A DNA stretch of 64,000 nt, taken from Sedimentisphaerales bacterium. GTDB lineage: Bacteria > Planctomycetota > Phycisphaerae > Sedimentisphaerales > UBA12454. Shown piece by piece: positions 10,360 to 40,679 of the stretch. A program made the translations under genes and the position numbers. Location: positions 27,538-91,537 of the forward strand of contig JAFGGI010000047.1 of NCBI GenBank assembly GCA_016930635.1, read 5' to 3'. The notes below the pieces were generated by a model. It was given only the letters and a program-made list of their open reading frames with translations. It did not search any database and had not been told where the DNA came from. The number at the start of each line of letters is the position of its first letter. The stretch's first letter is position 1.

Positions 10360-10830
10360 GTGAAAAAAGCATTACGTATATGTGTTGGTGCTTCAGCAGG
10401 CGGACATATGAATGAACTGCTGAAACTATTAGATAGTTCTCATAACTGGCCTTATCAGCCGTCATTTTATGTTACCACTTTAGATGCCGTAACTGACAAA
10501 CTAAAACGAAGAGGACAGGTTCATGTTATTGGAGAATGTAATCGCCGATGTCCTATGAAACTATTCGGGGTTTTTGCCAGAAGTCTTAAAATTGTAATAA
10601 AGCATCGCCCGGATGTTGTGATAACCACTGGTTCTTTGCCGCTGGCTATTCTTTGTTTGTCTGCGAAATTATTCGGGGCGAAAATTGTTTGGATTGACAG
10701 TGTTGCTAATATTGAACGTTTTTCTATGAGTGGGCGGATGATGCTGCGTTTTGCAGATCTCTTCCTGACCCAATGGCCTGAACTTGCTGAAAAGTGTGGT
10801 AAAGCTGAATATGCAGGATCCCTAATATGA
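10360..10830 (+). CDS. Alg14-like membrane-anchoring subunit of a split glycosyltransferase (PssD/Cps14F-like)
   Basis: It has ...VGASAGGHMNELLKLL... and is small. Its stop overlaps the start of the Alg13-like partner (ATATGA at 10827-10830). Confidence 0.7.
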   Translation: MKKALRICVGASAGGHMNELLKLLDSSHNWPYQPSFYVTTLDAVTDKLKRRGQVHVIGECNRRCPMKLFGVFARSLKIVIKHRPDVVITTGSLPLAILCLSAKLFGAKIVWIDSVANIERFSMSGRMMLRFADLFLTQWPELAEKCGKAEYAGSLI

Positions 10831-11306
10831 TATTTCTTACTGTTGGAACATATCCTCTTGCATTTGAAAGGCTGATAAGGGTTGTTGATGAGATGGTCAG
10901 AGATGGAGTTATAAAAGAGAAAGTTTTTGCTCAGATAGGGCAGTGTACCTACAAACCTAAAAATATGGATTATGTGGATATGTTAAACAAAGAAGTCTTT
11001 GATGACTATTTCAATAAAGCCTCTGCCGTAATCAGTCATGCCGGCATAGGTGCTATAGAAATGGCTCTAAAAACCAGAAAGCCGCTGCTTATTATGCCGC
11101 GATTGCGAAAATATAATGAAGTTGTGAACGATCATCAAGAAGCCACCGCAATAAAATTTGAACAGATGGGACATGTTCTTGCTGCTTATAATGAAAAAGA
11201 ACTCCGTGAAAAATTTAAAGAGCTTGAGTTGTTTGTTCCGCAACCAAGAGAAGATCGGACAAAAGCAGTTGCAGACCGGATTGCAAGGTTCCTGAATGAG
11301 TTATAA
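10827..11306 (+). CDS. Alg13-like catalytic subunit (GT28 C-terminal domain; PssE/Cps14G-like)
   Basis: The N-terminus MIFLTVGTYPLAFERLI... is the typical start of this family. It is translationally coupled to the Alg14-like gene. Confidence 0.7.
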   Translation: MIFLTVGTYPLAFERLIRVVDEMVRDGVIKEKVFAQIGQCTYKPKNMDYVDMLNKEVFDDYFNKASAVISHAGIGAIEMALKTRKPLLIMPRLRKYNEVVNDHQEATAIKFEQMGHVLAAYNEKELREKFKELELFVPQPREDRTKAVADRIARFLNEL

Positions 11307-13275
11307 AAAAGAAAATATTAAAGCTGTTATACTTGCTGGCGAAAATAATATTTATGCACATTCTATGACAAAATCTCTCTCGACTTTACTGTGGCCGGTG
11401 GTTGGGAAATCTTTGCTTGAACGTTTATTGCTCCATTTATCTGATCAAGGTATAAAGCAAGCAGTTATTTGTTGTGACACTAATAGTGAACTTCTGCGTA
11501 AATTAATTGGTAAGTGTGATTATCCAGAGTTGGAATTTATAGAGGAATCCCTGCCTTTAGGTTCGGCGGGATGTATTCGTGCGGCAGCAGCTAACGACAA
11601 GGAAGCTTTATTATTGGTATTTACTGCCGGCATAATATGTCTACCCAATATTGATTTGCTTGTTAAACAGCATCAACAGGGCAAAGCAGATTTGACGGTG
11701 ATGTTTAATCCGAGCGGTCAGGATAACAAAGTAACAGGTGAATTTGCCGGGGTATATGTTTGTCAGCCCAGTGTTCTGGAATATATACCACAGGATGGTT
11801 ATTTTGATATTAAGGAAGGTTTAATCCCTGGTATGCTTAAGGCGGAAAAAAGTGTTCATGCTGCGGTACTTCCGGAACGAACAGGGAACTTCCGCAATTG
11901 GCAGGAATATTTATATGCTGTAGAAGATTATCTTGAAAATAGAGCAAATAAAGATCTGCATATGCAGATCTTCAAAGAAGATAATTCACGAATTATATGG
12001 ACTGGGGACAAAACAAATATACATTCAAATGCTCGACTTTGTGGGCCGGTTGTTATTATGGAGGGAACAACTGTTTCTGAAAACGCAGTTATCTTTGGAC
12101 CAGCCATACTTGGACGCAATGTTACCATTAATGAAGGATGTGTCATTGTCAATAGTATTCTCTGGGATAATGCAAAAGTCGGGAAAAATTGTGAGATCCA
12201 GCGTTGTGTTGTTGATAACAATATAATTGTGGGAGATAATAAGATTGTCGAAGACGAATTTGTTGGCCGAAACTTAGGTCAAATTATAATTAATTCGACA
12301 AGCAAACATTCTACAGTAAAAAGAAGTATGAATAAGTCGCAGTCAGTATTTTCACCGAAGTTTAGTAAAGCAGATAAACTAATACCTGATGCTTTGCGGT
12401 CTAACAGCAAAATGGCCACCACTTGTCTTGCCGGCGGATTGCTTATTATTGCTTTGCTTTGGTCTTATTGGCCCAACTTTACGGATATCTGGAAGATTTG
12501 GCAAAGCAGCGATGAATATTCTTCAGGTATTCTGGTGCCTTTTTTGGCTATATATATTTTATGGTCAAAACGTGATAAAATCAGCCAGGTTGTTATTAAA
12601 CCGTCTGTTTTCGGTTTGTTTGCATTCGCGGGTACTCAGGCGTTCAGATTTTTCGGCTTATACTATATGTATAGTTCGGCAGAAAGACTGTCAATTGTTA
12701 TGAGTATTGCTGCGTTAGTGCTTTTTATCTTTGGTTGGCGTTTCTTCTGGAAGGTATTTACTGTATTACTTTTCTTATTTCTGATGCTTCCATGGCCCAA
12801 CCGTGTTCAAGCTGCCGTAGCACTGCCGTTGCAGAATTGGGCTACTTCATCGGCAGTATTTTGTCTGGAAACGGTAGGTTATGAAGTTGTTCGAGAAGGT
12901 AATACTATCCATATTGGTCAAACAGTTGTTGCGGTAGCTGAAGCCTGTAACGGTCTGAGGATGATTACAGCATTTCTTGTTATCAGTGGTATGGTCGTTT
13001 TGCTGGTCAATCGTAAATGGTGGGAAAAACTAATTATTCTTATTTCGTCTTTGCCGATAGCATTATTTTGCAATACCGTAAGATTGGTTGTTACCTCAAT
13101 TGCGTTCACAATACTGAAAGGAGAGTACTGGGAGAGGATATTCCATGATTTCGGCGGATACGCTATGATGCCGCTGGCGCTTGGTTTGATTGTTATTGAA
13201 CTTTTACTTTTGACGAAACTAACTACTGAACCGACTAAGCAAGAGACTATAATAGTAAAGAAAAAAAAGTCGTGA
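11296..13275 (+). CDS. fusion protein: degenerate sugar-nucleotidyltransferase-like domain plus LbH (hexapeptide) domain plus exosortase (EpsH/Xrt family)
   Basis: aa 1 to about 330 have ...AVILAGENN...WPVVGKSLL... and hexapeptide repeats (...VIMEGTTVSENAVIFGPAILGRNVTINEGCVIVNS...). aa about 373-659 are polytopic and carry exosortase hallmarks: ...DEYSSGILVPFLAIYILW..., Cys in ...EACNGLRMITAF..., Arg in ...FCNTVRLVV..., His in ...FHDFGGYAMMP.... Confidence 0.85.
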   Translation: MSYKKENIKAVILAGENNIYAHSMTKSLSTLLWPVVGKSLLERLLLHLSDQGIKQAVICCDTNSELLRKLIGKCDYPELEFIEESLPLGSAGCIRAAAANDKEALLLVFTAGIICLPNIDLLVKQHQQGKADLTVMFNPSGQDNKVTGEFAGVYVCQPSVLEYIPQDGYFDIKEGLIPGMLKAEKSVHAAVLPERTGNFRNWQEYLYAVEDYLENRANKDLHMQIFKEDNSRIIWTGDKTNIHSNARLCGPVVIMEGTTVSENAVIFGPAILGRNVTINEGCVIVNSILWDNAKVGKNCEIQRCVVDNNIIVGDNKIVEDEFVGRNLGQIIINSTSKHSTVKRSMNKSQSVFSPKFSKADKLIPDALRSNSKMATTCLAGGLLIIALLWSYWPNFTDIWKIWQSSDEYSSGILVPFLAIYILWSKRDKISQVVIKPSVFGLFAFAGTQAFRFFGLYYMYSSAERLSIVMSIAALVLFIFGWRFFWKVFTVLLFLFLMLPWPNRVQAAVALPLQNWATSSAVFCLETVGYEVVREGNTIHIGQTVVAVAEACNGLRMITAFLVISGMVVLLVNRKWWEKLIILISSLPIALFCNTVRLVVTSIAFTILKGEYWERIFHDFGGYAMMPLALGLIVIELLLLTKLTTEPTKQETIIVKKKKS

Positions 13276-13466
13276 CCTAATAACAGTATAGTTTACAATT
13301 AATGATGAGGATAATTTAGGGGCCTCATAACTATCCGATGATTTACGTAATTTGAATGTGGAAAAAAAGATATATTTACCCTTGAAATGTTTTGCCTATA
13401 TAACATCTTTAGACAGCTATAAATATAATAATATGCGTTTTTATGCCAATAACTACATTAGATAAC

Positions 13467-13495
13467 TTGAATAATTGCAATGATTTTGTTAAAAT
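13467..13495 (+). promoter_or_regulatory. candidate sigma70-type promoter (TTGAAT-17 nt-TAAAAT)
   Basis: -35 TTGAAT is at 13467-13472 and -10 TAAAAT at 13490-13495. Both lie in the 354-bp AT-rich gap upstream of the chain-length determinant gene. This is a pattern match only. Confidence 0.25.
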
Positions 13496-13629
13496 AGTTA
13501 AAATCTACAGTTTGGGTAAATTATAATGAACGATATTAGAGGTCTATCCTTTATAATAGGATCGATTGATAGTGAAATTGAAGTTTCTACAAAACTTGTA
13601 AACAGTTAACGAGTATATGAACTCATAGT

Positions 13630-15978: not shown

Positions 15979-17697
15979 TTGTGCCTTATGTTCAACCTTA
16001 ATAAATCCGAACATTTAGTTGTTATACGTCAAGATGAACTCAGTAAGACAGATGACTGTGTCGAATTACTTCGGTTTGCTGTTTCCAGTGAACCTGTAGC
16101 CGGTATTGTTTTTGATCAACTGAGCAGAAATCCGTTATTACCTGATAAAACAAATACCGTTATTGCTGTCCCGGCCGAATGGAATGCTGCTTCTGACAGA
16201 ACCGCAATTAATATAAAATTTTATACAGCAGGTGAACAGGTTTGTTTTGATGGGCTGAAGGATATCAAACAGAGTCCATGGTTTATTATTTCTAATGGAC
16301 AATTTGCTGTAAAAATCAATGAGGAGGTGCTTAATAAAGTTTTAAACAGCCTTCCGGCCGATGTCATAGCAGTCAATGCTGATTATGGTTTGTTAGCATA
16401 TCGTGAAAAATTAAGATTTATATCCGATGAATGGATAGCGTCCTGCCGTCGGCATTATTCTGATTCAGCGGAACCGATTCCGATACCGAGTGACTGGCCT
16501 CACCATATTTTTATGAAAAAAGCTGTTGCTGGTACTGCTTTGGCTAATGGTGTTTTACCTGACCGTTTTACTGATTTTGTTGACAAATGTTTGTCAAAAT
16601 CATTGAAGTTATGTGCGATTAGTATTGCCGGTATTGCACAGGATTTGAAAACTAAGACGGGATTACTAAATCTTTGCAGGAGGCATCTTGATACTCTGTC
16701 TGAGACGGGTGCTTTAAATAATGGTCAAAATATGTATAAACAAGTATTTGGTACCGACGCAAAAACATCTCAAAAAGCAAGGTTGGTAGGCAAAGTATTG
16801 TTAGGCAAAAATGTTCAACTTGGACAGGATATTGTGATTGTCGGCCCTGCGGTAATATGTGATAACACTAAGATTGGCACTGCTGCTGTTATAAATTCAT
16901 CAATAATCGGCCCTGATCTCTCAGTTCCTGCAAATCAAATGCTGTTCAATCAGGTTGTGCAGGAAAAACAGCCAAACTGGAAAAATCTGGCTCGATATAA
17001 TAAACACAGTTATGAGCAGAAAGTATTTGATGTTTTAGAACGTCGCTTTAAAGCTGATAACGAATTTAAAACCTGGCCGGTAATTTCCTATGCCCGTCTC
17101 ATGAAACCTATAGCAGATTTTATTGTTTCACTGATCGTATTGATTCTATTTGCTCCTATAGTACCTTTCATCATATTAGCAATAAAAATAAATTCGCCTG
17201 GTCCCGTTTTCTTTAAAGATAAACGTCAGGGAAAAAGAGGTAAAGAGTTTTTCTGTTTGAAGTTCAGGACTATGATTGTTGGTGCTGATAAGATCCAGGA
17301 CAAACTAAGATTTGTCAATCAAATCGACGGTCCGCAATTCAAGATGGGGGATGATCCTCGAATCAGTACCGTAGGCAGATTTTTGCGAAATACCTGTATC
17401 GATGAGATCCCTCAGTTTTTTAATGTTTTAATGGGCCAGATGAGTATTGTCGGGCCGAGACCTTCACCAGAATCTGAGAATACAATGTGTCCATCCTGGC
17501 GATATGCCCGCCTGTCTGTTCGACCCGGAATTACAGGGCTTTGGCAGGTATGCAGAACACGTGAACCGATGAAAGATTTTCAGGAGTGGATTTATTATGA
17601 TACGAAATACGTTCAAAGGTTATCACTAAAAACTGATTTATGGGTATGCTGGCGGACGGCCCGGCATATGGCAATCAACTTTATTAAGCAATTTTAA
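15979..17697 (+). CDS. priming phosphoglycosyl transferase (bacterial sugar transferase, EpsB/WbaP-like) with a long N-terminal cytoplasmic LbH-containing extension
   Basis: The C-terminus has ...SPGPVFFKDKRQGKRGKEFFCLKFRTM... and ...DEIPQFFNVLMGQMSIVGPRP.... A hexapeptide-like segment ...ARLVGKVLLGKNVQLGQDIVIVGPAVICDNTKIGTAAVINSSIIGP... lies upstream. An alternative ATG start is at 15988. Confidence 0.85.
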   Translation: MCLMFNLNKSEHLVVIRQDELSKTDDCVELLRFAVSSEPVAGIVFDQLSRNPLLPDKTNTVIAVPAEWNAASDRTAINIKFYTAGEQVCFDGLKDIKQSPWFIISNGQFAVKINEEVLNKVLNSLPADVIAVNADYGLLAYREKLRFISDEWIASCRRHYSDSAEPIPIPSDWPHHIFMKKAVAGTALANGVLPDRFTDFVDKCLSKSLKLCAISIAGIAQDLKTKTGLLNLCRRHLDTLSETGALNNGQNMYKQVFGTDAKTSQKARLVGKVLLGKNVQLGQDIVIVGPAVICDNTKIGTAAVINSSIIGPDLSVPANQMLFNQVVQEKQPNWKNLARYNKHSYEQKVFDVLERRFKADNEFKTWPVISYARLMKPIADFIVSLIVLILFAPIVPFIILAIKINSPGPVFFKDKRQGKRGKEFFCLKFRTMIVGADKIQDKLRFVNQIDGPQFKMGDDPRISTVGRFLRNTCIDEIPQFFNVLMGQMSIVGPRPSPESENTMCPSWRYARLSVRPGITGLWQVCRTREPMKDFQEWIYYDTKYVQRLSLKTDLWVCWRTARHMAINFIKQF

Positions 17698-23429: not shown

Positions 23430-23506
23430 AACAGGCTCACACATATTTTTAATATAATTTTTAAACTTAAAGTTGAATGCAACAAATGAAAAAAAGGAGT
23501 TTTAGT

Positions 23507-24196
23507 ATGAAAAGATTAATATTATTGACGTTGATGTTCGGCCTTCTTGCAGTTCCGGCCTTTGCTACACCAACGGTTAAATTAACCGGTATTGGTAAAG
23601 GCGGCGTCTACAATGGCTACTTTGCTGGTGAGATGAACTGGCGAGTCAATGACGATGACGGCGGAAACCTCGACGGATATGATACTGGAGATACATTTGT
23701 GAGCTTCTGTCTTGAGCTGCATGAACCTGTATCTATCGGCGGCATTTATGATGCCGTGATAAATACTAGTGCGGTTGAAGGCGGAATCCCGGGCGGCTCT
23801 GATGCTATTAGTCAGGGTACAGCCTGGTTGTACAACGAATATCTGGATAATTATATCGGCGTTAGCAATACACTGGCTAAAGATTATCAGATGGCTGTTT
23901 GGGCTCTTGAAAACGAGATTCCTGTCGGTGATCTGACAGCAGGGGCACAAAGTCTGATAAGCAATATCCCAACAGTATTTACTGCTAAGCAGTTGGTCCA
24001 GATAGGTCTTATCAAAGTTCTCAATTTGTATGTCCAGGGAACATATCCTACGGATAACACCTGTAACTACAGACAAGACATGCTTATCCGTGTCAGCACT
24101 GGTGGTGTTATAGTTCCTGCTCCCGGTTCTATTCTGCTCAGCAGTATCGGAATTGGCATTGTAGGCTGGCTGCGAAGACGAAGGAATATGATGTAA
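23507..24196 (+). CDS. PEP-CTERM ('PAP' variant) sorting-domain surface protein with thioester-domain-like Cys/Gln motifs
   Basis: AAGGAG lies 7 nt before the ATG at 23507; the listed 23477 start adds 10 aa before the signal peptide. The signal peptide is MKRLILLTLMFGLLAVPAFA. Motifs: ...SFCLEL... and ...YQMAVWALE.... The tail is ...VPAPGSILLSSIGIGIVGWLRRRR. Confidence 0.85.
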   Translation: MKRLILLTLMFGLLAVPAFATPTVKLTGIGKGGVYNGYFAGEMNWRVNDDDGGNLDGYDTGDTFVSFCLELHEPVSIGGIYDAVINTSAVEGGIPGGSDAISQGTAWLYNEYLDNYIGVSNTLAKDYQMAVWALENEIPVGDLTAGAQSLISNIPTVFTAKQLVQIGLIKVLNLYVQGTYPTDNTCNYRQDMLIRVSTGGVIVPAPGSILLSSIGIGIVGWLRRRRNMM

Positions 24197-24302: not shown

Positions 24303-24998
24303 ATGAAAAAGTTTAGCAGAAATATAATTAAATACTTCGCTGTTGTAATTTTTGTTGCGGCGATGTTTATTTCTTCTGCAGAAGCTGTCCCTACCTATTA
24401 TTTTGGCGGCGTCACTAACAATAATGTTACCAATGTTAGTGCCGGACAGAGTCAGTTAAGTCTTGAAGTGACTCATCCGGACGGCGTTGATAATCAGACG
24501 CTGTTTACTTTCAAAAATACTGGGCCGCAGGGCTTCTCGATTACGGACGTTTATTTCTATGATGGTACTCTTCTGGGTATCTCACAGATTGACAACTCAG
24601 ATCCGGGCGTCTTGTTCGAATCTTCTGCAGTTCCGCAGGAATTGCCGGGTGGAGAGTCTCTTGGTCTTTCGACTGTAAGCTTCTCTCTCGACTCTGGCGC
24701 ACCACCGTTCGATAATGGTGTGGCACCTGGTGAGGAACTGGGTATCCTGTTCGATCTCATAAATGGTGCTGTTTATTCAGATACTCTTGACGCACTTAAC
24801 GGCAGCGGTTTCGTTGATGGTAATCTTATTGTTGCTGTTCAGGTTCAGGGATTTGATGACGGCGGCGTTGAATCATTTGTGACTATTGGTACAGAACCTC
24901 TTCCTGCGACTATTATTATTCCGGCCCCGGCAGCACTTTTGCTTGGCAGTATTGGTGTTACTATGGTTGGCTGGATGAAAAGACGGAACGCAGTTTAA
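24303..24998 (+). CDS. PEP-CTERM ('PAP' variant) sorting-domain protein, unassigned domain, paralog A
   Basis: Signal peptide plus the tail ...IIPAPAALLLGSIGVTMVGWMKRR. It is colinear and highly similar to the next gene. Confidence 0.85.
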   Translation: MKKFSRNIIKYFAVVIFVAAMFISSAEAVPTYYFGGVTNNNVTNVSAGQSQLSLEVTHPDGVDNQTLFTFKNTGPQGFSITDVYFYDGTLLGISQIDNSDPGVLFESSAVPQELPGGESLGLSTVSFSLDSGAPPFDNGVAPGEELGILFDLINGAVYSDTLDALNGSGFVDGNLIVAVQVQGFDDGGVESFVTIGTEPLPATIIIPAPAALLLGSIGVTMVGWMKRRNAV

Positions 24999-25018: not shown

Positions 25019-25723
25019 ATGGAAAGGTTTAGCGGAAATACAATTAAATACTTTGCTTTTGTTGCTTTGACTATAGCAGTATTTGTTGTTTCTGCAGATG
25101 CTGTACCGACATATTATTTTGCCGGTGTCACTAGCAATAACCTTGTTAATGTCACCGCTGGACAGAGTCAGTTATCTGTTGAAGTGACTCATCCGGACGG
25201 TGTTGACAATCAAACGTTATTTACTTTTAAAAATGTTGGGCCACAGGGATGTGCAATTACAGATATATATCTCTATGATGGTACTCTTTTGGGTATCTCA
25301 CAGATTGATAATTCAGATCCAGGTGTCTCATTTTCACCTTTTGCAAAACCAGATAAACTACCCGGCGGAGAGTATCTTGGGCTTCCTGGCGTAAGTTTTT
25401 CTCTGGATTCTGATAATCCGGCATTTCACAATGGCGTCGGGCCCGATGAAGAACTAGGTATTCTGTTTGATCTCGTAAATGGTGCCGTTTATTCGAACAC
25501 GCTTGATGCACTCAATGGTGTCGGATTTCTTGGCAGTAATCTTGTGATCGGCATACATGTTCAGGGATTTGATGACGGCGGCAGTGAATCTTTTGTAACC
25601 GCTGCTGGCGGACCAACACCAACAAGTATTATTATTCCTGCTCCGTCAGCAATTTTACTGGCTGGTATTGGTGTTAGTTTAGTTGGTTGGATAAAAGGTG
25701 GAAAACGATTTAGTAGGAGATAA
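25019..25723 (+). CDS. PEP-CTERM ('PAP' variant) sorting-domain protein, unassigned domain, paralog B
   Basis: An AGGAGG RBS precedes it. The tail is ...IIPAPSAILLAGIGVSLVGWIKGGKR. It shares long identical peptide runs with 24303..24998 (e.g. VTHPDGVDNQTLFTFKN, YDGTLLGISQIDNSDPGV). Confidence 0.85.
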   Translation: MERFSGNTIKYFAFVALTIAVFVVSADAVPTYYFAGVTSNNLVNVTAGQSQLSVEVTHPDGVDNQTLFTFKNVGPQGCAITDIYLYDGTLLGISQIDNSDPGVSFSPFAKPDKLPGGEYLGLPGVSFSLDSDNPAFHNGVGPDEELGILFDLVNGAVYSNTLDALNGVGFLGSNLVIGIHVQGFDDGGSESFVTAAGGPTPTSIIIPAPSAILLAGIGVSLVGWIKGGKRFSRR

Positions 25724-25726: not shown

Positions 25727-26365
25727 ATGAAAGGATTGATTACAATTTGTTTAGTAGTAACTTTGGTGATTAGTTCGTATGCTTTTGCCAATGGAACTGT
25801 GAAAATGGCAATAGGTCGCTATGGCACTCCTAACTATGGCGTAGATGGTGAATTTATAATTACGGTGCTCAGCGGCCTGCCGGAGCTTCCGACTCAATTT
25901 GGTTCTTTTTGTCTGGAGCTGAATGAGTCTATTAGTGCTGGTACTACTTACAATGCTGTTATTAACACTGAAGCTATTAAAGGCGGAGAGGCAACATCTG
26001 ATCCCCTCTCGCCGAAAACCGCCTGGCTTTACAATCAGTACCTTACCGGTGCTATTACGTTTAACGTAAATTATGATGCTACCCAGTTCCAATATGCCAT
26101 CTGGGCGCTCGAAGATGAAATTGCACCTGGGTATGATGCGGGCAATGGAATTTATTGGAATTCTGTTGCAACAGGTTACTATGACGCTGCTATGGCTTCT
26201 AATTGGCAGAGTATAGGTAATATCCGTGTCCTGAATATGGGAACTGCGGACGACAACTATCAATATCAGGATGTGTTAGCACCTATTCCGGCTCCTGGTG
26301 CGGTTCTGCTCGGCAGTATTGGTGTCAGCATCGTTAGTTGGCTAAAAAGGAAAAGAGTATTTTAA
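25727..26365 (+). CDS. PEP-CTERM ('PAP' variant) sorting-domain surface protein with thioester-domain-like Cys/Gln motifs, paralog A
   Basis: Signal peptide. Motifs: ...GSFCLELNE... (Cys62, TGT at 25910-25912) and ...TQFQYAIWALEDE... (Gln122). The tail is ...IPAPGAVLLGSIGVSIVSWLKRKR. Confidence 0.85.
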   Translation: MKGLITICLVVTLVISSYAFANGTVKMAIGRYGTPNYGVDGEFIITVLSGLPELPTQFGSFCLELNESISAGTTYNAVINTEAIKGGEATSDPLSPKTAWLYNQYLTGAITFNVNYDATQFQYAIWALEDEIAPGYDAGNGIYWNSVATGYYDAAMASNWQSIGNIRVLNMGTADDNYQYQDVLAPIPAPGAVLLGSIGVSIVSWLKRKRVF

Positions 26366-26378: not shown

Positions 26379-27017
26379 ATGAAAAAATTAATTACAATTT
26401 GTTTTGTAATAACTTTGGTGGTCAGTTCATATGCGTTCGGCAATGGAACGATAAAGCTTAGCCTTGGCAGGTACGGTACTCCCAATCATGGGTATGACGG
26501 TGAGTTGCTGGTTACAGTTATGAGCGGTCTGGGTGTTCTTCCAACGCACTTTGGTTCTTTTTGTCTGGAACGAGAAGAAGGTATTGAGCCTCATGTTGTT
26601 TATAATGCTGTTATCAATACCGAAGCTATCAAGGGTGGAGAGTCTGTCTCTGATCCTCTTTCACCCCAAACCGCCTGGCTTTACAATCAGTACCTGACTG
26701 GTGCAATTACATTCGGCGATGATTATGATGCTACTCAGTTTCAGTATGCTGTATGGGCACTCGAGGATGAGATTACACCATATGCGGTAGGTGATGGGAT
26801 TTACTGGAATTCTGTTGCAACGGGTTACTATAACGCTGCTATAGCTTCTAATTGGCAGACTATACGTAATATCTGTGTGCTGAACGTAGGTGATGATCCG
26901 GATTATGTTTATCAGGATGTTTTAGCCCCGATTATACCTGCTCCTGGCGCAGTTTTACTTGGCAGTATCGGTATTGCTTTTGTTGGCTGGTTGAAAAGAC
27001 AAAGAACGCTCGGATAG
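26379..27017 (+). CDS. PEP-CTERM ('PAP' variant) sorting-domain surface protein with thioester-domain-like Cys/Gln motifs, paralog B
   Basis: Colinear with 25727..26365. Motifs: ...GSFCLEREE... and ...TQFQYAVWALEDE.... The tail is ...IPAPGAVLLGSIGIAFVGWLKRQR. Confidence 0.85.
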   Translation: MKKLITICFVITLVVSSYAFGNGTIKLSLGRYGTPNHGYDGELLVTVMSGLGVLPTHFGSFCLEREEGIEPHVVYNAVINTEAIKGGESVSDPLSPQTAWLYNQYLTGAITFGDDYDATQFQYAVWALEDEITPYAVGDGIYWNSVATGYYNAAIASNWQTIRNICVLNVGDDPDYVYQDVLAPIIPAPGAVLLGSIGIAFVGWLKRQRTLG

Positions 27018-27082
27018 AGCAGAACAAATGGATTTTAATTGGATAATTTGAATGGAATGTAATAAGGAGTTAATAGAACAAA

Positions 27083-27936
27083 TGAAAAATAAAGTAATAT
27101 TTACTTTGGTGTTCTTCATTTTTGTAACGGCTAATATTGCTGCTGCCAGTCAGAGCTATATGCTTTTTGATGATTGGGGCGGCAGCTGGTCTGATGCGGA
27201 AAAAACACCGGGTAATTCGCAGGATAACCTGATGTGTTGGGCGGCATCGGCGTCGAATGTACTTGACTGGTCTGGCTGGGGACATGTTGCAGGTCTTAGT
27301 AGTGCAGATGAAATATTTAGTTACTACCAGAATCACTGGACAGACCAGGGCGGCTCAGCATATTATGCTTGGGAATGGTGGTTTACCGGTAATAACAGCA
27401 CCCAGGGCGGTTATTATGCGATGACCGGCTGGTCTCAGGTAGATGTACCCGGCGGAGGATTCTATCCTTCAGAAGGTTTACATGACTACTTTATGTATGC
27501 TTCCGCAGCTACTTCGAACGTAATGCAGGCGATAGACCAGTTTCAACATGCTGGATATGGAACCTCTTTAGGATTATTCTCATCTGCTATAGCTCATGCC
27601 GTGACTGCGTGGGGATTCGACTATAATCCTGACAATCCGACTGAATATTATGGTATTTGGATTACTGACTCTGATGACGGTAAGAATGACTTGACTCCCG
27701 AAGACGAATTATGTTACTACGCCTTGAACTTCAGTAATAATAAGTGGTATCTGGAGGATTATTACGGATACTACGATGTTTATATTGATCATGTTCTCGG
27801 ATTAGGGCGTATGCCAGGATGGGACGATATTCCTAATGAGCCGGTACGTGAGATTTTTATCCCTGCACCCAGTGCATTGGTACTTGGCAGTATAGGTGTA
27901 GGATTTGTCGGTTGGTTAAAAAGAAAAGCACTGTAA
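27083..27936 (+). CDS. IdeS/Mac-like (peptidase C66-like) cysteine endopeptidase with PEP-CTERM ('PAP' variant) tail
   Basis: ATG at 27083 follows AAGGAG (27065-27070) and begins the signal peptide MKNKVIFTLVFFIF...; an alternative start is at 27052. Motifs: ...QDNLMCWAASASNVLDWSGWG..., ...IAHAVTAWGFDY..., ...YGIWITDSDDG.... The tail is ...IPAPSALVLGSIGVGFVGWLKRK. Confidence 0.75.
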
Positions 27937-29062: not shown

Positions 29063-29812
29063 TTAAGGACCAGACTGTGTTGATGCAGGGCCTTCCAGAG
29101 TTCTTTGTATGACATTGATAGTTGAGAAGGTACTGTTGATCGGTGTTGTAATCTCCTGTACGGTTTTCCCTATGGAGGCCAATATAGTTGGCGGCACGTA
29201 GATTATGTCGCCTTGTTGTATTAGAACATCTCTGCTGGTATCGCCGGTGGTCATCATTTTTTTGAAGTCCAGTTCAAATACTTTAGGTTTTATATTCACA
29301 TCATTTGATGGTCTTATCACCCGGATGCGTTCGTTCCAGGCTAGGATAGTTGGATTAGCCGAGGCAATAGCTGTAAATGCCGGAACTCTGCCGGTACAAA
29401 GCTTTGGACCCGGATGTTCTACTTCGCCGAGAACATAATAGTAATTACTTTGGTACGTTGATATCTGAATGTCAATTGGATTATCCCCAGATAGTGCGTA
29501 AAGTTCTATAACTTTCATTCGCAGATCGTTTGCTAACTGTTCGGGAGTTTTACCTGCTGCGTATACGCTTCCCAGACTCTCGAAGGTTACATAGCCGTCA
29601 GGTCTGATTTGCTGTTTTTGGAGATTAATTTCAGGGACTTTTAAGCAGTGTATCTCAATCTCATCCGGGGGCATCAGGAAATACTTTTCGGTTGTTACAA
29701 CAGTATCGTTTGGTTTTAAAAATGCGTCGATATCATCTATTTTGGATGACGAGGAACATCCCGCAAACAGGACAAAAGACAAAATAATCACATTTAAAAT
29801 TATTGAACGCAT
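29063..29812 (-). CDS. polysaccharide export lipoprotein (Wza/EpsE-like, Poly_export + SLBB)
   Basis: Lipobox ...VLFAGCSSSS. The motif ...IRPDGYVTFESLGSVYAAGKTPEQLANDL... is typical of the polysaccharide export family. A strong AAGGAGG RBS precedes it. Confidence 0.85.
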   Translation of the reverse strand: MRSIILNVIILSFVLFAGCSSSSKIDDIDAFLKPNDTVVTTEKYFLMPPDEIEIHCLKVPEINLQKQQIRPDGYVTFESLGSVYAAGKTPEQLANDLRMKVIELYALSGDNPIDIQISTYQSNYYYVLGEVEHPGPKLCTGRVPAFTAIASANPTILAWNERIRVIRPSNDVNIKPKVFELDFKKMMTTGDTSRDVLIQQGDIIYVPPTILASIGKTVQEITTPINSTFSTINVIQRTLEGPASTQSGP

Positions 29813-30000: not shown

Positions 30001-30474
30001 TTAGGATAGTATTTTAACCAGCTTATCAGATATTTTTTCAACAGCGTCTTTAACCTCTTTGCTTAATGGACAGTTAAAATCGGTTTGTCCGGGCTGAATG
30101 CCTATAAGAAAAAACTGACATGGGATTTCGCTGGTTATACAATCACAAAAAAGCGTTAAAGAAACTGAATGGGTCGAAATTGAGAAAGACTGGTCCTCTT
30201 GTGGACTGAAGATTTTAAAAGTTCCCGGCTGGGCTGCGAAATCGACCGCATCTATGATAATGATATTTTGCGGAGTTTTTTTTATAACAGGACCGATGAA
30301 ATTCTCTGGTGTTGTGCCAGCGTCAATAACCTCTGATTTTATTCTGTCCTTAAGTAAATCAGAAACTATGCATCCTGCTGCATCATCTCCTTTTAACCGG
30401 TTGCCTATACAGACTATAACCGTTTTATCTGGATTAATATTTTTAACGAATTCTAAAGCTTGCTTGGGAGGCAA
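30001..30474 (-). CDS. [NiFe] hydrogenase maturation endopeptidase (HycI/HybD family)
   Basis: It has ...VIVCIGNRLKGDDAAGCIV... (the GN-x4-DD-x-G signature). It is the last gene of the hydrogenase operon. Confidence 0.8.
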   Translation of the reverse strand: MPPKQALEFVKNINPDKTVIVCIGNRLKGDDAAGCIVSDLLKDRIKSEVIDAGTTPENFIGPVIKKTPQNIIIIDAVDFAAQPGTFKIFSPQEDQSFSISTHSVSLTLFCDCITSEIPCQFFLIGIQPGQTDFNCPLSKEVKDAVEKISDKLVKILS

Positions 30475-30475
30475 C

Positions 30476-31105
30476 TTACAGCCTGATATTTAATTCATAT
30501 TTGCATGAAGGACATAGTATCTTCATGAAATCGCCGGCGACAGCTTCGGCTTTTGTTTCCTGTGTTTGTTTTGCCTGCTGAGTAAGTTCAGAGATTTTTT
30601 TTTGGCTGGTTAAATTCTCTGATTGTGCAATAACCAATGATGGATTTGTATAAGCAAGTGGGCCAAGACGCTCATATATCCAGGCCAGGTGCTTTTTTAC
30701 GCCGACGATAGCACCGCATTTTTCACATATCTGCAATTCATGTTCGTGTATTTCTTTTGTGGTTTCCCTGTCAAGTGTTGCCAGATCCCACTTATCTGAT
30801 AACTTGATACCTTTTTGAGTGGTACAGTTTTCCTGGCAGTTGCCGCAGAAGATGCAGGAGTCATACCGCTGGATTATTTTTCGTACAGGCGGGTTTGCCT
30901 CGAGATCATCTATCATCATAAGAGACTGTGTGGGACAGACATTTACACAAGCGCCACAACCGATACATTCTTTTTCGTCGAATTCAGGCTTGCCGCGATA
31001 CCTTTCAGGAACCTGGCACGGTTTAGCAGGGAAACGCGTTGTAAAACGCGGCGAAATAACAGCGACCACAGCTTCTTTAAGTTCTCTTAGTTTTGGCCAA
31101 CGCAT
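30476..31105 (-). CDS. 2x[4Fe-4S] ferredoxin-type hydrogenase subunit (NuoI/MbhN/EchF-like) with C-terminal extension
   Basis: Motifs: ...CIGCGACVNVCP... and ...CIFCGNCQENC.... An extra roughly 80-aa tail carries CEKCG and CPSCK pairs. Confidence 0.75.
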   Translation of the reverse strand: MRWPKLRELKEAVVAVISPRFTTRFPAKPCQVPERYRGKPEFDEKECIGCGACVNVCPTQSLMMIDDLEANPPVRKIIQRYDSCIFCGNCQENCTTQKGIKLSDKWDLATLDRETTKEIHEHELQICEKCGAIVGVKKHLAWIYERLGPLAYTNPSLVIAQSENLTSQKKISELTQQAKQTQETKAEAVAGDFMKILCPSCKYELNIRL

Positions 31106-31116
31106 TTTAGCTCCGT

Positions 31117-31440
31117 TTATTTTTCTTCTGCATATCTGTCAATAATACTTTTGTCGGTAAGCGATATTCCGGCTGAATGCGCACCTCTGGATATAGCGTG
31201 GGCGGCGGTTGGTGAGGTTATCAGGATAAAAACAGCACAGATAATTGCTTTGCCGGCTATTGCACCTGTTCCTATTATCAAGGCGGTGCCGCCAAGGATC
31301 ATTATAGTTCCTAAAGTTACACATTTTGTCGAGGCCTGCAGGCGGTTGTAAACATCCGGAAAACGTACAAGCCCTATACAGCCGGAGATATCAAAAAAGA
31401 TTCCAACCGAGACCAGCATATAGCCTAAAAAATCAATCAT
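31117..31440 (-). CDS. Mrp/Mnh-type cation:proton antiporter subunit G (MbhC-like)
   Basis: ...GCIGLVRFPDVYNRLQASTKCVTLG... matches the MnhG signature. About 107 aa with 3 TM helices. Confidence 0.8.
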   Translation of the reverse strand: MIDFLGYMLVSVGIFFDISGCIGLVRFPDVYNRLQASTKCVTLGTIMILGGTALIIGTGAIAGKAIICAVFILITSPTAAHAISRGAHSAGISLTDKSIIDRYAEEK

Positions 31441-31690
31441 CGAAATTCCTTCCTTCCAGAAACTTTGCCAGTGCCAGTGATGCGATAAAACTCAAAAGTG
31501 CCCAGGCAAGTGCGACATTGAGATAAAAATCCTGTTTTGTTACGATAGTCATTATTGCACAAAAACCTACTATAACAATACCCATAATATCAATGGATAC
31601 TATCCTGTCGGCGGCGCTTGGTCCTCTGCCGATGCGGTATAAGCACAGCAGCGAGCATGTTATCAAGCTTATATAAAATACAGCTATCAT
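31433..31690 (-). CDS. Mrp/Mnh-type antiporter subunit F (MbhB-like)
   Basis: 85 aa with ...RIGRGPSAADRIVSIDIMG.... It overlaps the downstream gene by 8 nt. Confidence 0.75.
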   Translation of the reverse strand: MIAVFYISLITCSLLCLYRIGRGPSAADRIVSIDIMGIVIVGFCAIMTIVTKQDFYLNVALAWALLSFIASLALAKFLEGRNFDD

Positions 31691-31702
31691 AAAAATTCCT
31701 GT

Positions 31703-32203
31703 TTACTCAAAAATCTTTGCCAGAAAATATTCAAATTTCTTTGCGATATATTCGGTTGCTTCTTCGGTGTCGGTACTTTTTATGTTAATCCAGTGTATAT
31801 ACATAGTGCCGTCATCTTTCAAATCAACAGTTAGCGTGCCCGGCGTCAATGTTATAGAATTTGCAAGTGCGACGCGGGCAGCATCTGTCTTAAGAGACGT
31901 TTTTATTTTGACAATACCGGGCTTTATTGGCAGCTTCGGGTGTAGAGCGCGGTAAACAACATCGAAATTAGCAATGAGTATATAATAGAAAAATACCGGG
32001 ATATAAATAATCGCCCAGAAAACTCTTACAGGCGAGAAGAGGAATTTATACTCAGTGGGCATAACTTCATGGAACATAACCGAAACAATTATTGCAGCGC
32101 CAACACCTGCCAGGATAACCTGCAGGCTGTCGGCGGTGCCGAACGGCCAGGTCAAAACCAGCCATACAACCAGGGCTACTATAAAATAAACTACTCTTCG
32201 CAT
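31703..32203 (-). CDS. Mrp/Mnh-type antiporter subunit E (MbhA-like)
   Basis: 166 aa with N-terminal TM helices and the conserved ...NSITLTPGTLTVD... block. Confidence 0.75.
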   Translation of the reverse strand: MRRVVYFIVALVVWLVLTWPFGTADSLQVILAGVGAAIIVSVMFHEVMPTEYKFLFSPVRVFWAIIYIPVFFYYILIANFDVVYRALHPKLPIKPGIVKIKTSLKTDAARVALANSITLTPGTLTVDLKDDGTMYIHWINIKSTDTEEATEYIAKKFEYFLAKIFE

Positions 32204-32215
32204 AATTAAAACCTG

Positions 32216-33748
32216 TTATTGACCAGTTAAAATCTGAGCACTTAAAACCTTTCCTGCATAAGCAAAGCCGTCTGAAAGAGCATTAACGGCGTTATCGAGA
32301 ACGACAACACGGAAAGGTTCGTAAATAACGAGTGCTCCCATAAACACACAAAGAATCGCAAGCAAAATCATCGCACAAGCCATAAGACCGCGATGTTCAG
32401 CAGTGGATTTTAAATTTTCAGGCAATTCACCAAGAAATACGTATCTTTGAACTTTCAAAAACGATATAAGTGTTACAATACTTACCAGAACGGTAACAGC
32501 TGCAAGGCCGTAAAGGCCGGCTTGTACCGCGGCAATTACTAATATCAACTTGCTCCAGAAACCATTAAAAGGCGGTACCCCTGCAATAGCAGCAGAAGCA
32601 ATTGTGCATGTCGAGCGGGTAACAGGCAGCCTTTCAGCAAGACCGCCAAGCTCTTTAAGCTGCCTTGTGCCGGTTGACATCTCGACAGAGCCGCTTGTTA
32701 AGAACAACAGCGATTTGAAGACCGCATGATTCATCAGGTGGAACAGCCCGCCGAGCAATGCAAGAGATGCCCAGGCAGGATTGCCGCCATTAGAAAGAAT
32801 AAGTGCCGCCATTCCAATACCGAGTATGACATAACCCATTTGGCTGATACTGTGATAAGCCAGAAGACGTTTGAAATCCCACTGGCCGACAGCGAGAAAG
32901 ACGCCTATGACCATACTTAAAACACCCAGGGCAATTAACACCCAGCTTATCTGCACCGATATTCCTAATACGTTGAAGATAACTCTCGAGAGAGAATAAA
33001 TCCCTAAAGCCTTGATCAGGACGCCTGAAAGCATTGCTGAAATTGGTGCCGGTGCCGAAGGATGTGCATCAGGCAGCCAGGCATGGAAGGGTACAAGAGC
33101 GGCCTTTAAGCCAAAACCTGTTGTAAATAATGCAAGGGCAAAGGCAAGACCGGTATTGATACCATTTTCGGCAACATATCTTGAAATAACAGCCATGTTC
33201 AATGAACCGGTATTACCGTAAACAACTCCTACGCCGAACAGCACAAACATTGATGCTACGGTTCCCAGTGTCATATATTTGAAAGCCGCCTCAAGTTCTT
33301 CATGCTCACAGCCGAACCCGACAAGGGCGTAAGAGGCAATAGAGGCAATCTCGAGAAATACAAACAGATTGAAGATGTCGCCGGACAGTACCACGCCGTT
33401 CATTCCGGTAACCATCAGCAAAAACAGGCTCAGATACTTGTTCTTGGAAGTATACTGCTCCATGTAACGATTACTGAAAAGCATAGCTGTAAAGCTGACA
33501 GTACTTATAGTTGCCAGCATTAATGCACTTAGGCCGTCAAGGACCAGATTTATGCCAAGAGGTATTGTCCAACGACCGACGATATAAACATCAAATCTGC
33601 CAAAGGATAATATTGACATAACAAGCAGGACAGCTATTACCACGGTTGCAGCAAGAGAAGCAAATCCCTTGAATTTTTTACCACACAACGGCAGCAGAAA
33701 GGCCGAAGCTAATGGCAGAGCAATAAATAAAGGCAGAGGAATACTCAT
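32216..33748 (-). CDS. Mrp antiporter subunit D / NuoM-N-like proton-translocating subunit (MbhH-like)
   Basis: A 510-aa polytopic protein with ...HAWLPDAHPSAPAPISAMLSGVLIK... and ...LLAYHSISQMGY..., typical of the NuoL/M/N-MrpA/D family. Confidence 0.85.
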   Translation of the reverse strand: MSIPLPLFIALPLASAFLLPLCGKKFKGFASLAATVVIAVLLVMSILSFGRFDVYIVGRWTIPLGINLVLDGLSALMLATISTVSFTAMLFSNRYMEQYTSKNKYLSLFLLMVTGMNGVVLSGDIFNLFVFLEIASIASYALVGFGCEHEELEAAFKYMTLGTVASMFVLFGVGVVYGNTGSLNMAVISRYVAENGINTGLAFALALFTTGFGLKAALVPFHAWLPDAHPSAPAPISAMLSGVLIKALGIYSLSRVIFNVLGISVQISWVLIALGVLSMVIGVFLAVGQWDFKRLLAYHSISQMGYVILGIGMAALILSNGGNPAWASLALLGGLFHLMNHAVFKSLLFLTSGSVEMSTGTRQLKELGGLAERLPVTRSTCTIASAAIAGVPPFNGFWSKLILVIAAVQAGLYGLAAVTVLVSIVTLISFLKVQRYVFLGELPENLKSTAEHRGLMACAMILLAILCVFMGALVIYEPFRVVVLDNAVNALSDGFAYAGKVLSAQILTGQ

Positions 33749-34128
33749 CCTTTAAGTCTCCTGATCTTTGTTATGTCGAAAGTGCCATATTTTTCATATA
33801 TTCTTATACATATCGCAACCATAAGAGCCAAAGAGCCCAGGCCGATTACGATCGAAGTAAGTACAAGAGCTTGCGGCAGGGGGTCAACCGCTCTGGATAC
33901 GAACAATTGCGAAACGGTCCCTGCCTTGTCGAGCAAATCGCCGCCTGCGGCAATTGGAGCAACAGCTTCCTCAGCAAGCTTTCGCCAGCCCAGCATTACC
34001 AGAAAGAGGTTAACGGCATATTCCATAAGCAAAATGCCTATAACGATCTTGATCATGTTCTTTTTGACCAGAACACAATAAAGACCGATCATAAATAACA
34101 AAAAGCAAAGCGAATATAACATTTCCAA
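33745..34128 (-). CDS. Mrp antiporter subunit C / NuoK-like (MbhG-like)
   Basis: 127 aa with 3 TM helices. Its position and 4-nt overlap with the MrpD-like gene fit. Confidence 0.7.
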   Translation of the reverse strand: MEMLYSLCFLLFMIGLYCVLVKKNMIKIVIGILLMEYAVNLFLVMLGWRKLAEEAVAPIAAGGDLLDKAGTVSQLFVSRAVDPLPQALVLTSIVIGLGSLALMVAICIRIYEKYGTFDITKIRRLKG

Positions 34129-34584
34129 TTACTCCTGGCTCTCCAGCCTGAAAGCTGAAAGAACAAGTGTTACTAAGAATAACGACGCTGCAACTTTTAT
34201 GCCGATAAATATATTATATAGTGGTATTGCCCCGGCACTTACAAGCTCACCGGCAGACTCATACTCAACTAAGAATTTTTGTTGAATGAAATTATAAAAG
34301 AAAAATCCTGCTCCATAAATAAAGCCGCATAAAGCCAAAGCTATAAATAAGAACGCAGCAATACAATCTAATTTCGAAGCTAATGATATCGGAAGATTTT
34401 CTTCGGCATATTCTTTGCCGAACGCAAGCAGCAGAAGGATATAAGAGCCGGCAAGTATAACGCCGCCGGCAAACCCGCCGCCGGGTGTTAAATGACCGAA
34501 AAGGATAATATAGATACCGAACAAAAAGACCAGTACCTTTATCCAGCTTGCTATCGTTTTTACTATTATTGTCATACCCTTCAT
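34129..34584 (-). CDS. Mrp antiporter subunit B (MnhB domain; MbhF-like)
   Basis: It has ...HLTPGGGFAGGVILA... (the MnhB signature). A GGAAGGAGG RBS precedes it. Confidence 0.75.
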   Translation of the reverse strand: MKGMTIIVKTIASWIKVLVFLFGIYIILFGHLTPGGGFAGGVILAGSYILLLLAFGKEYAEENLPISLASKLDCIAAFLFIALALCGFIYGAGFFFYNFIQQKFLVEYESAGELVSAGAIPLYNIFIGIKVAASLFLVTLVLSAFRLESQE

Positions 34585-34669
34585 CCCGTTAGACCTCCTT
34601 CCCTACGACAAACGTCATTTTTATTTGAAGGGGTATCAGTACGAATTAATTTAAAAGTTCTAACGGGAT

Positions 34670-35224
34670 TCATAGCGGGTCCTCTTCAAACAGGAGTTTT
34701 CTGCTTTTTTTACGAAGTATCACAATTGCTCCGACTACAGAAGTAAACAGCACTGTAGCTTCACCCAGCGTATCATATACACGATAGTCAAGATAAACTG
34801 CTGTAACTATGTTTGCTGCTCCGGTGTCTTTGACGCCGTTTTCAAGATAAACCTGTGATGCAGAATCAGGTATTCTTGCAAAGGCGGCATCACCGAACGG
34901 GGGCATATCGGCAAAAATCCCGGTTCCAATTACAAAGATTAAGAACAGTATAACTACAGAAACTACCACGGCGAAAAACTCTCTGTCGCCGCTTATAAAA
35001 CTTTTTTCACGTGATATGGTAGCCCTTATCAAAATCACCAGTCCCAGCACTTCGACAACAGTTTGTGTCAGGGCAATATCTGGAGCCTTGAGGAAAAGAT
35101 ACATAACTGCTGAGCCGAAACCAACCGCACCGACGCAAATAACAGCACTGAGAAGGTTCGTTGTTTCGACGGCGATTATACCGGCGATCAGCATCAGAAC
35201 CATTAATATATAGAAAATTTCCAT
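34670..35224 (-). CDS. MrpA C-terminal-like membrane subunit (DUF4040; MbhD/E-like)
   Basis: I chose the start at MEIFYILMVLM... (35224) because it avoids overlap with the upstream gene ending at 35232. The product is hydrophobic and sits where MbhD/E would in Mrp-Mbh operons. Confidence 0.6.
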   Translation of the reverse strand: MEIFYILMVLMLIAGIIAVETTNLLSAVICVGAVGFGSAVMYLFLKAPDIALTQTVVEVLGLVILIRATISREKSFISGDREFFAVVVSVVILFLIFVIGTGIFADMPPFGDAAFARIPDSASQVYLENGVKDTGAANIVTAVYLDYRVYDTLGEATVLFTSVVGAIVILRKKSRKLLFEEDPL

Positions 35225-35231
35225 AACAGTC

Positions 35232-38307: not shown

Positions 38308-38756
38308 CTTAATTTCTTGAATTCATAATCTTTTTTTAACGGGCATATACCTTGAGGCCAATCATCGGCCAAAATAAGCCTTTTCATATTCGGATGATTA
38401 TTAAACTCTATTCCGAAGGTATCGTGCATTTCTCTTTCGATCCACTCGGCGCCCGGGATGATCGGTGTTATGGACTCTATCAGCGGCTTATTGCGGTCAC
38501 GGATAAAGGCCTTTACGTTTATAAATGTGCTGAGCTGATCGTATGCGAAATGATGTATAACTTCATAGCAGTTATCTGCATCAATAGCTGTAGAAATCAC
38601 AAACCTTGCTTTTACGTCCTCGAAGAGGAATTTACATATGTTATAAACTTTTTCCGCTTCACAGGAGAGGTAAACCCTTGTAGGTGCAGTCTCTTCTATC
38701 TTTATCAGTTGATCTGATATTGAATTAATCTTATTTTTCAGTTCTTCAAGATTCAT
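38304..38756 (-). CDS. NuoC-like hydrogenase subunit (MbhK-like)
   Basis: 150 aa with ...IPGAEWIEREMHDTFGIEF..., typical of the 30-kDa NuoC family. Confidence 0.8.
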   Translation of the reverse strand: MNLEELKNKINSISDQLIKIEETAPTRVYLSCEAEKVYNICKFLFEDVKARFVISTAIDADNCYEVIHHFAYDQLSTFINVKAFIRDRNKPLIESITPIIPGAEWIEREMHDTFGIEFNNHPNMKRLILADDWPQGICPLKKDYEFKKLR

Positions 38757-40678: not shown

Positions 40679-40679
40679 A

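Follow-up and report, generated by a model that had tools for sequence, protein, structure and literature searches.

Exosortases with an N-terminal nucleotidyltransferase-like module in exopolysaccharide loci of Phycisphaerae and Sedimentisphaerales

Results

An exosortase gene with an additional N-terminal module

The DNA analysed is a 64,000-nt stretch from a Sedimentisphaerales bacterium (contig JAFGGI010000047.1), here called the window, and all window coordinates are positions of that stretch. One of its genes encodes an exosortase whose membrane core is preceded by a nucleotidyltransferase (NTase)-like alpha/beta domain, a short left-handed beta-helix (LbH) and a basic linker (Table 1); the first two are together called the N-module below. 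A preliminary description of this DNA had claimed that one frame joins a GMPP/GlmU-like module to a complete exosortase, and the claim holds. The open reading frame (ORF) is intact, the translation of 11296–13275 contains KAVILAGENNIYA (residues 9–21), and the motifs quoted at the time, LAGENNIYA, EACNGLR (Cys551), FCNTVR (Arg596) and FHDFGG (His617), are all present in its 659 residues. Pfam recognises NTP_transferase (PF00483) at residues 9–142 (35.6 bits, cut-off 21.2), LbH_EIF2B/Hexapep at 234–323 (55.8 bits, cut-off 54; Hexapep_GlmU matches the same region) and Exosortase_EpsH (PF09721) at 385–636 (192.2 bits, cut-off 25.7).

The exosortase core is complete, with its Cys, Arg and His hallmarks, as had been described: C551, R596 and H617 are invariant in 28 of 28 and 52 of 52 sequences. 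The only NCBIfam exosortase model passed was TIGR02602 8TM_EpsH (148, cut-off 105.55). All the named Xrt models failed, XrtD with 157 against a cut-off of 400, XrtW with 144 against 425, XrtA (TIGR03109) with 143.5 against 208 and XrtB with 73 against 275. AlphaFold2 (AF2) modelled the membrane domain as helices, compatible with a polytopic core of about eight transmembrane (TM) segments, but at a predicted local distance difference test (pLDDT) of 40–60, and the number of TM helices could not be read clearly from a simple hydropathy scan. Three segments are basic, namely the linker (nine K+R, two D+E), the loop at residues 572–579 (NRKWWEKL) and the C-terminal KKKKS. Since these would be cytoplasmic by the positive-inside rule, we infer that Cys551, Arg596 and His617 lie at the outer face and that the N-module is cytoplasmic. 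The membrane would thus separate the N-module from the active site, and the module would take no direct part in cleavage.

The fusion is a genuine protein of a large clade

Relatives were found in 369 species-representative genomes, and the locus counts given below refer to the best 80 of these. Queried with only the N-module of the window sequence, an exhaustive search gave 111 cluster representatives at E ≤ 1e-30; the 51 longest of these (616–688 amino acids; 50%-identity clusters) were aligned, and column counts are over 52 fusions. At least 120 database proteins of 620–682 amino acids, from metagenome bins of Planctomycetota, Phycisphaerae and Sedimentisphaerales, align over 94–100% of the query at 54–66% identity. 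Both halves lie in one ORF in 80 of the 80 loci, and all 51 aligned cluster representatives have both halves and the Cys/Arg/His triad, with N-module identity falling to ~26%. The same single frame is seen in more than 130 independent assemblies, and no stop codon interrupts the linker region in any of the 77 aligned loci. The fusion is a genuine single-frame protein and not an assembly artefact; the junction, checked here through homologues, had been marked for confirmation in the preliminary description.

The in-frame ATG at 12412 (Met373), from which a stand-alone exosortase had been suggested, is unlikely to be a conserved internal start, because only one of the 52 family members, the window's own sequence, has Met at this position and because no Shine-Dalgarno-like motif was found upstream of it.

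All carriers of the fusion are Phycisphaerae or Sedimentisphaerales, and in this large clade it is the standard exosortase, so it is not rare. In closely related pairs the ratio of non-synonymous to synonymous substitution rates (dN/dS) was 0.13–0.40 for the N-module and mostly 0.09–0.25 for the exosortase core, the linker being near neutral. The N-module evolves under purifying selection. The linker varies across the family in length (20–67 amino acids) as well as in sequence. All the named database homologues but one are called 'exosortase'; one database source labels a homologue (P0025) 'UTP--glucose-1-phosphate uridylyltransferase'. The architecture had been put forward as one without known parallel; it is in fact common in its clade and present in databases under the name 'exosortase', but no dedicated family model covers it.

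Three observations on individual genomes may be added. On a 4.1-kb contig (L018:8-4156) one ORF of at least 1382 amino acids covers the exosortase fusion and a Wzc-like protein, which could be another fusion or, alternatively, reflect an error of assembly or read-through. Two bins contain two copies of the fused exosortase operon each (L015 and L026 in MohnsGC08_bin191; L036 and L055 in CSMAG_2034). Anaerohalosphaeraceae bacterium U12dextr (L267), whose record has no label as a metagenome-assembled genome (MAG), has the operon intact and may be a culturable model.

The N-module is most likely a pseudoenzyme

In an AF2 model of the fusion protein built from 28 homologues, an alpha/beta domain leads into a beta-helix (pLDDT ~70–89 over residues 40–320), after which come a disordered stretch (326–373) and then helices. 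The best Foldseek matches of the soluble part were GMPP/VTC1 (4e-18), VTC1-KJC2, tlr0611, GMPPA/GMPPB, AGPase and eIF2B-epsilon, with E values of 1e-18 to 1e-15, and PDB sequences searched with a profile gave the same placement of the fold. The beta-helix is ~100 amino acids long and its top models are LbH_EIF2B and GMPPB_C, GlmU matches reaching the first turns only. A GlmU-type LbH acetyltransferase was rejected on these grounds, the helix being short, of the GMPPB_C/eIF2B type and not of the long trimeric GlmU type, and the acyl-CoA-sensing role once suggested for the module falls with it.

To compare motifs, the family profile was aligned with HMMER to the solved NTases 8x7s_B and 7whr_B. 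The signature loop LAAGKGTRVRP corresponds to LaGsrdfgrcp in the family (Thr to Phe, Arg to Gly); the P-K-P motif IPKPMIP to lptaLWp (Lys to Thr, with T, R, P and others across the family); the G-D motif VLCGDAL to lvlpasi (Gly-Asp to Pro-Ala, T-A in the window protein); and the W-x-D-x-G motif WIDIG to agnfR (Asp to Asn, with N, S or T across the family and Asn198 in the window protein). None of the 52 divergent fusions restores the canonical residues at these catalytic positions. Most family members have a distinct conserved loop, G-x-R-D-F-G-R-C-P, that is lost in the window's subclade; the window protein itself reads LAGENNIYAHS where LAGGxGTRL is expected, with neither the Gly-rich turn nor the Arg. 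The best score of the protein with any NCBIfam NTase model was 87.6, far under the cut-off of 440. The degenerate nucleotide-binding loop noticed at the outset is thus borne out, and extends to a whole catalytic set replaced across the family.

Two other motifs are kept in the window protein, E84-x-LP-x-G(S/T)AG-x-x-R95 and G168-Y-F-D171-I-K173-E174. In the 52-sequence alignment G89, G92, D171, E174, Y205, G268 and P269 are invariant, and K173 is present in 51. The E-x-LP-x-GTAG and G-Y-x-D-I-K-E motifs are those that we take, from general knowledge of the enzyme family, to line the nucleotide and sugar-phosphate pocket.

Because the four catalytic NTase positions are replaced across the family, the N-module is most likely a pseudoenzyme, a catalytically dead NTase-like fold; because the pocket motifs are kept, it may have retained the ability to bind a nucleotide-sugar as a signal. 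In combining a lost catalytic loop with a preserved pocket it resembles GMPPA, a paralogue without catalytic activity that regulates GMPPB and binds GDP-mannose (PMC11228364).

A related module on the priming phosphoglycosyl transferase

The operon of the fusion gene also encodes a priming monotopic phosphoglycosyl transferase (PGT), in which an N-terminal module of ~370 amino acids is followed by a single re-entrant helix (~377–400, by hydropathy) and the catalytic domain. The beta-helices of the exosortase and the PGT are 28–31% identical in pairwise BLAST, and hhalign matched the two N-module families with a probability of 98.8% (E 1.3e-16) over 219 columns, reaching into the alpha/beta domain. 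On the strength of these sequence matches the two N-modules are homologous. Weak support comes from an AF2 model of the PGT, which is poor (mean pLDDT 50.3): the order of its secondary-structure elements mirrors that of the exosortase module, and Foldseek placed the same GMPP-type structures on top, with PglC and WbaP for the catalytic part. The GTAG motif is lost in the PGT module.

A PGT with an N-module is present in every related locus with enough flank. Its full-length homologues (~565 amino acids, 98–99% coverage) are conserved as well as the exosortase family. In a mirror-tree comparison the two N-modules, of exosortase and PGT, gave a partial correlation of 0.39, and the exosortase core with the PGT parts gave 0.17–0.28.

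The source contig's own gene call for the PGT (P0271) has 394 amino acids, against the 572-amino-acid ORF that homologues cover to 98–99%. The start appears to have been mis-called in the source annotation, by which the N-module was missed. In some other PGT fusions (P0233, P0257 and L086:4808-6607) the N-module is nearer the exosortase type and has a less degenerate loop (GGEGSALHPLT...SKPMLP); such modules may be intermediate forms that connect active NTases with the degenerate module of the PGT.

Split genes and free modules

In three genomes (L081, L082 and L083) a separate gene encodes the module, and its operon also contains an exosortase gene without fusion. The first two, closed Sedimentisphaerales chromosomes, have, in this order, a 326-amino-acid module, an EpsI-family gene (PF11984), an exosortase of 299–308 amino acids, Wzc, a PGT with N-module and PrsT. 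In the third, the exosortase comes 128 nt after the gene for a 327-amino-acid module and is in another frame. Since fused and split forms both exist, this Rosetta-stone evidence suggests that module and exosortase function together without need of a covalent link. An EpsI-family gene (PF11984) adjoins unfused exosortases in L081, L082, L140, L166, L176 and L209; no such gene was found in the window or in the 10 kb around any of the fused loci (L001–L080).

Stand-alone modules of a more distant family (consensus LAGVHxWG...) are encoded in 265 species genomes, which belong to Phycisphaerae, other Planctomycetota, Gemmatimonadaceae and Acidobacteriota. Of the 80 best loci in these genomes, 64 have the free module directly before a PGT or with one Wzc gene between. 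These PGTs have 580–650 amino acids and a hexapeptide-containing N-module of their own. Judged by gene neighbourhood, the conserved pairing is that of a free module with a PGT module, and in the clade of the window this free module has become part of the exosortase.

The locus and its candidate substrates

The gene is the exosortase of an XrtA-like locus of the exopolysaccharide (EPS)/PEP-CTERM type. Its upstream part encodes a Wzy-like protein, a pyruvyl transferase and glycosyltransferases, the last two genes before the fusion being an Alg14/Alg13-like pair that is found upstream in about 42–46 of the 80 related loci. The ATG of the fusion gene and the stop of the Alg13-like gene share an 11-nt overlap. 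Downstream, the order fusion, Wzc, PGT, PrsT is kept in essentially all loci with enough flank (78, 65–67 and 62 of 80, respectively). Neither an active NTase partner, looked for among the window ORFs, nor PrsK or PrsR, among the part of all window ORFs that was scanned, was found.

Table 1. Features of the fusion gene and its locus in the window.
Feature	Position	Strand	Evidence and remarks
Alg14-like and Alg13-like proteins, split glycosyltransferase pair	10360–10830; 10827–11306 (together 10360–11306)	+	Directly 5' of the fusion gene, overlapping
Fusion gene: pseudo-NTase/LbH module, linker and exosortase, 659 aa	11296–13275	+	ATG start, ORF intact
NTase-like alpha/beta domain, residues 1–222	11296–11961	+	PF00483, HMMER alignments, column counts, AF2, Foldseek
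Short left-handed beta-helix, residues 223–325, GMPPB_C/eIF2B-epsilon type	11962–12270	+	PF25084, PF24894, PF00132; modelled beta-strand ladder 224–319
Basic disordered linker, predicted cytoplasmic, residues 326–372	12271–12411	+	pLDDT <50; excess of K+R over D+E
Exosortase membrane core, residues 373–659	12412–13275	+	PF09721, TIGR02602
Codons of the exosortase triad, Cys551, Arg596 and His617	12946–12948; 13081–13083; 13144–13146	+	
Wzz/Wzc-type chain-length determinant and tyrosine autokinase, 771 aa	13630–15945	+	Pfam, NCBIfam
Priming monotopic PGT, 572 aa, TTG start	15979–17697	+	Bac_transf domain at residues 376–564; PF02397, 195 bits
PrsT-like TPR protein, 1388 aa	17733–21899	+	TIGR02917, 309.6 bits (cut-off 312.2)
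Six tandem candidate substrates	23477–24196; 24303–24998; 25019–25723; 25727–26365; 26379–27017; 27052–27936	+	
Wza-like polysaccharide export lipoprotein	29063–29812	−	Poly_export and SLBB_2; TIGR03027 under cut-off

The six tandem proteins, small and predicted to be secreted, are the obvious candidate substrates of the exosortase. Each has an N-terminal signal-like segment and, at the C-terminus, (I/V)PAP(G/S)A followed by LLGSIG...VGWL and a basic cluster, which makes the tails a variant of PEP-CTERM with Ala replacing Glu. TIGR02595 accepts the first (17.1 bits, cut-off 16) and leaves the other five unrecognised. The motif rests mainly on these six genes, few tails lying within the fetched flanks of related loci. 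By its family membership, the exosortase presumably cleaves these (I/V)PAPGA-CTERM tails, encoded ~10 kb downstream.

The fusion gene and the Wzc gene lie unusually far apart, with 354 nt between them (13276–13629) against ~30–300 nt in related loci. No terminator was found in this gap, and its promoter-like matches are no better than chance.

Discussion

Exosortases have been known in EPS loci since 2006. We propose for the N-module a cytoplasmic role as adaptor or regulator: by pairing with its homologue, the N-terminal module of the priming PGT from the same operon, it would link PEP-CTERM-type sorting to EPS initiation, a reading to which we give even chances. Such pairing, modelled on GMPPA-GMPPB, eIF2B-gamma/eIF2B-epsilon, KONJAC-VTC1 and the AGPase subunits, would tether the exosortase to the first membrane step in the synthesis of EPS repeat units, or bring both under common regulation. 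It is suggested by analogy, these complexes being all among the best structural matches of the N-module. GMPP/eIF2B-type families use inactive paralogues as regulatory partners (for GMPPA, PMC11228364; PDB titles), and the accessory cytoplasmic domain of the Lg-PGT WbaP, a nucleotide-sensing regulatory domain (PMC10942596), offers a precedent. A scaffolding or sensing role coupling sorting to glycan synthesis had already been envisaged in the preliminary description; acyl-CoA aside, it is still the best reading and has been much strengthened by the PGT module, the split genes and the free modules. The link to glycan attachment that was also raised there is speculation.

More tentatively, and with considerable doubt, the proposal may be extended: both pseudo-NTase modules would form a hetero-oligomeric cytoplasmic hub and thereby put together a sorting-and-priming machine, in which the exosortase would act on (I/V)PAPGA-CTERM substrates in register with the initiation of glycans linked to undecaprenyl phosphate (Und-P), the lipid-linked glycan possibly being the transpeptidation acceptor. 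If this were true, the pair of free module and PGT module in Planctomycetota, Gemmatimonadota and Acidobacteriota would be an unrecognised, widespread two-subunit regulator of EPS initiation.

Several points weigh against an N-module that is inactive and joins the exosortase to the PGT. The hhalign match between the two families is driven mainly by the beta-helix, and homology of the PGT's first ~100 residues is not established, the model of this protein being poor. The mirror-tree signal is modest; the value for the N-module against the PGT catalytic domain (0.35) is near that for the two modules (0.39), and the genes share one operon history. Among the 80 free-module loci an exosortase was found in four within the fetched flank (at most 8 kb; one may be encoded elsewhere in the genome), and the module may have the PGT or Wzc as its primary partner, in which case its fusion to the exosortase could be a lineage-specific convenience. 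As to the dead active site, the D-F-G-R-C loop of most members has an Arg one position off the canonical one, and residual chemistry is possible there, the window protein being without that Arg. The conserved pocket residues could, moreover, be structural.

Of the alternatives to pairing with the PGT, an autonomous sensor survives best, although we regard it as unlikely. The N-module would bind a nucleotide-sugar or nucleotide and gate the exosortase allosterically through the linker and first helix with no involvement of the PGT, whose own module would act likewise and independently, both reading one metabolite pool. The invariance of the GTAG and G-Y-x-D-I-K-E pocket motifs amid the loss of catalytic residues fits this, as do the binding of GDP-mannose without catalysis by GMPPA (PMC11228364) and nucleotide sensing by the WbaP accessory domain (PMC10942596). 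A disordered linker of variable length that evolves near neutrality would however transmit allosteric signals poorly, in the split loci the module functions as a polypeptide of its own, and the PGT module is without the GTAG motif.

Less likely again, the beta-helix and NTase domain could serve to dimerise or trimerise the exosortase as a homo-oligomerisation scaffold, the likeness of the PGT module reflecting common descent only. GMPP, GlmU and AGPase self-associate, the fold family consists of obligate oligomers, and WbaP forms a homodimer via accessory elements (PMC10942596), but this would leave unexplained both the split loci and the free modules that lie beside a PGT with N-module in loci without an exosortase within the flank.

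That the module is an active enzyme, making an NDP-sugar at the membrane and feeding it to the PGT by substrate channelling, seems very improbable: the Pfam NTP_transferase match over its gathering score, the name given to P0025 and the Arg that most members keep in the D-F-G-R-C loop would agree with it, but the replacement of all four catalytic positions across the family, the window loop ENNIYAHS without Gly-rich turn or Arg, and the NCBIfam NTase scores do not. Almost no weight is left for a frameshift or missed stop that joins two genes, or for a short product from ATG 12412 only, since the split versions in a few genomes and the frame of that ATG are outweighed by the recurrence of one uninterrupted frame across assemblies and by a Met373 that is unique to the window sequence and has no Shine-Dalgarno-like motif.

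The pairing of N-module and PGT module that we favour can be set against known systems. The exosortase resembles XrtA/PEP-CTERM-EpsH (Haft et al. 2006, PMC1569441; TIGR02602, TIGR03109) in being of the predicted 8-TM type with a Cys/Arg/His triad, in the presence in its EPS locus of a PrsT-like TPR protein, a chain-length determinant/tyrosine kinase, a Bac_transf PGT and a Wza-like exporter, and in its multiple substrates with a P-x-P motif, a TM segment and a basic tail. It differs in failing the XrtA model, in having (I/V)PAPGA instead of PEP and an N-terminal pseudo-NTase module, and in that EpsI was not found nearby. XrtD, which gave the top NCBIfam score (157 bits), XrtW, XrtT and others likewise have an accessory domain on the exosortase core, EpsI (TIGR02914/PF11984); that fusion is C-terminal, whereas the window's is N-terminal, probably cytoplasmic and of an unrelated fold. 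EpsI, not found within 10 kb of the fused loci, also sets the fused members of the window's clade apart from their unfused relatives, which have it as a separate gene. Fusions described by Haft et al. are of C-terminal EpsI only (PMC1569441).

GMPPA-GMPPB, VTC1-KONJAC, eIF2B gamma-epsilon and the AGPase large and small subunits share the NTase-like fold with a short LbH, one partner being inactive as a regulator or scaffold. Paralogous modules are likewise co-encoded in the window's operon; by contrast, both of these look inactive and are tethered to, or encoded beside, membrane enzymes of unrelated function. The PGT is similar to the WbaP Lg-PGTs and the Bi-PGTs (PMC10942596, PMC11626204) in having its monotopic Bac_transf core after a cytoplasmic, non-catalytic-looking and plausibly regulatory domain. 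Unlike WbaP, it has no four-helix TM bundle or PF13727, the place of which is taken by the degenerate NTase-like and LbH module. The monoPGT and Bi-PGT fusions described so far are to active acetyltransferases or glycosyltransferases (PMC11626204).

Our literature search returned no paper that describes an exosortase with an NTase-like module or a PGT with a pseudo-NTase partner. The fusion is abundant in databases under a generic name, is captured by no NCBIfam type model and is apparently undescribed. Present annotations read 'exosortase', 'sugar transferase' or, wrongly, active uridylyltransferase; for database curation, our results define an unnamed type of exosortase and an unnamed family of PGT-associated pseudo-nucleotidyltransferases. 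They also offer a Rosetta-stone hint, in that the exosortase is joined to a module whose homologue is joined to the EPS-initiating enzyme and which elsewhere is a free protein beside that enzyme. The prediction that follows is that the two N-modules bind each other, a nucleotide-sugar, or both.

Other features of the window

A membrane-bound group-4 [NiFe]-hydrogenase/Mrp-like cluster occupies 30001–42520 on the minus strand. It contains two Proton_antipo_M proteins, a Complex1_49kDa protein with a NiFeSe_Hases match, a NuoH-like subunit and a 4Fe-4S protein, as well as an ORF whose N-terminus, on reading the sequence, resembles a hydrogenase maturation protease. The sign of the GC skew flips at 30001–42520, together with the switch of gene strand. 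At 43329–45749 (minus strand) an 806-amino-acid protein has an unusual architecture, with an N-terminal HATPase_c domain, a pyridine-nucleotide-disulfide oxidoreductase and a C-terminal rhodanese. A PilM-like protein encoded at 60131–62335 (minus strand) has 734 amino acids, about twice the usual length of PilM, and the ORFs beside it, at 56921–58762 and 58840–60057, have no Pfam match.

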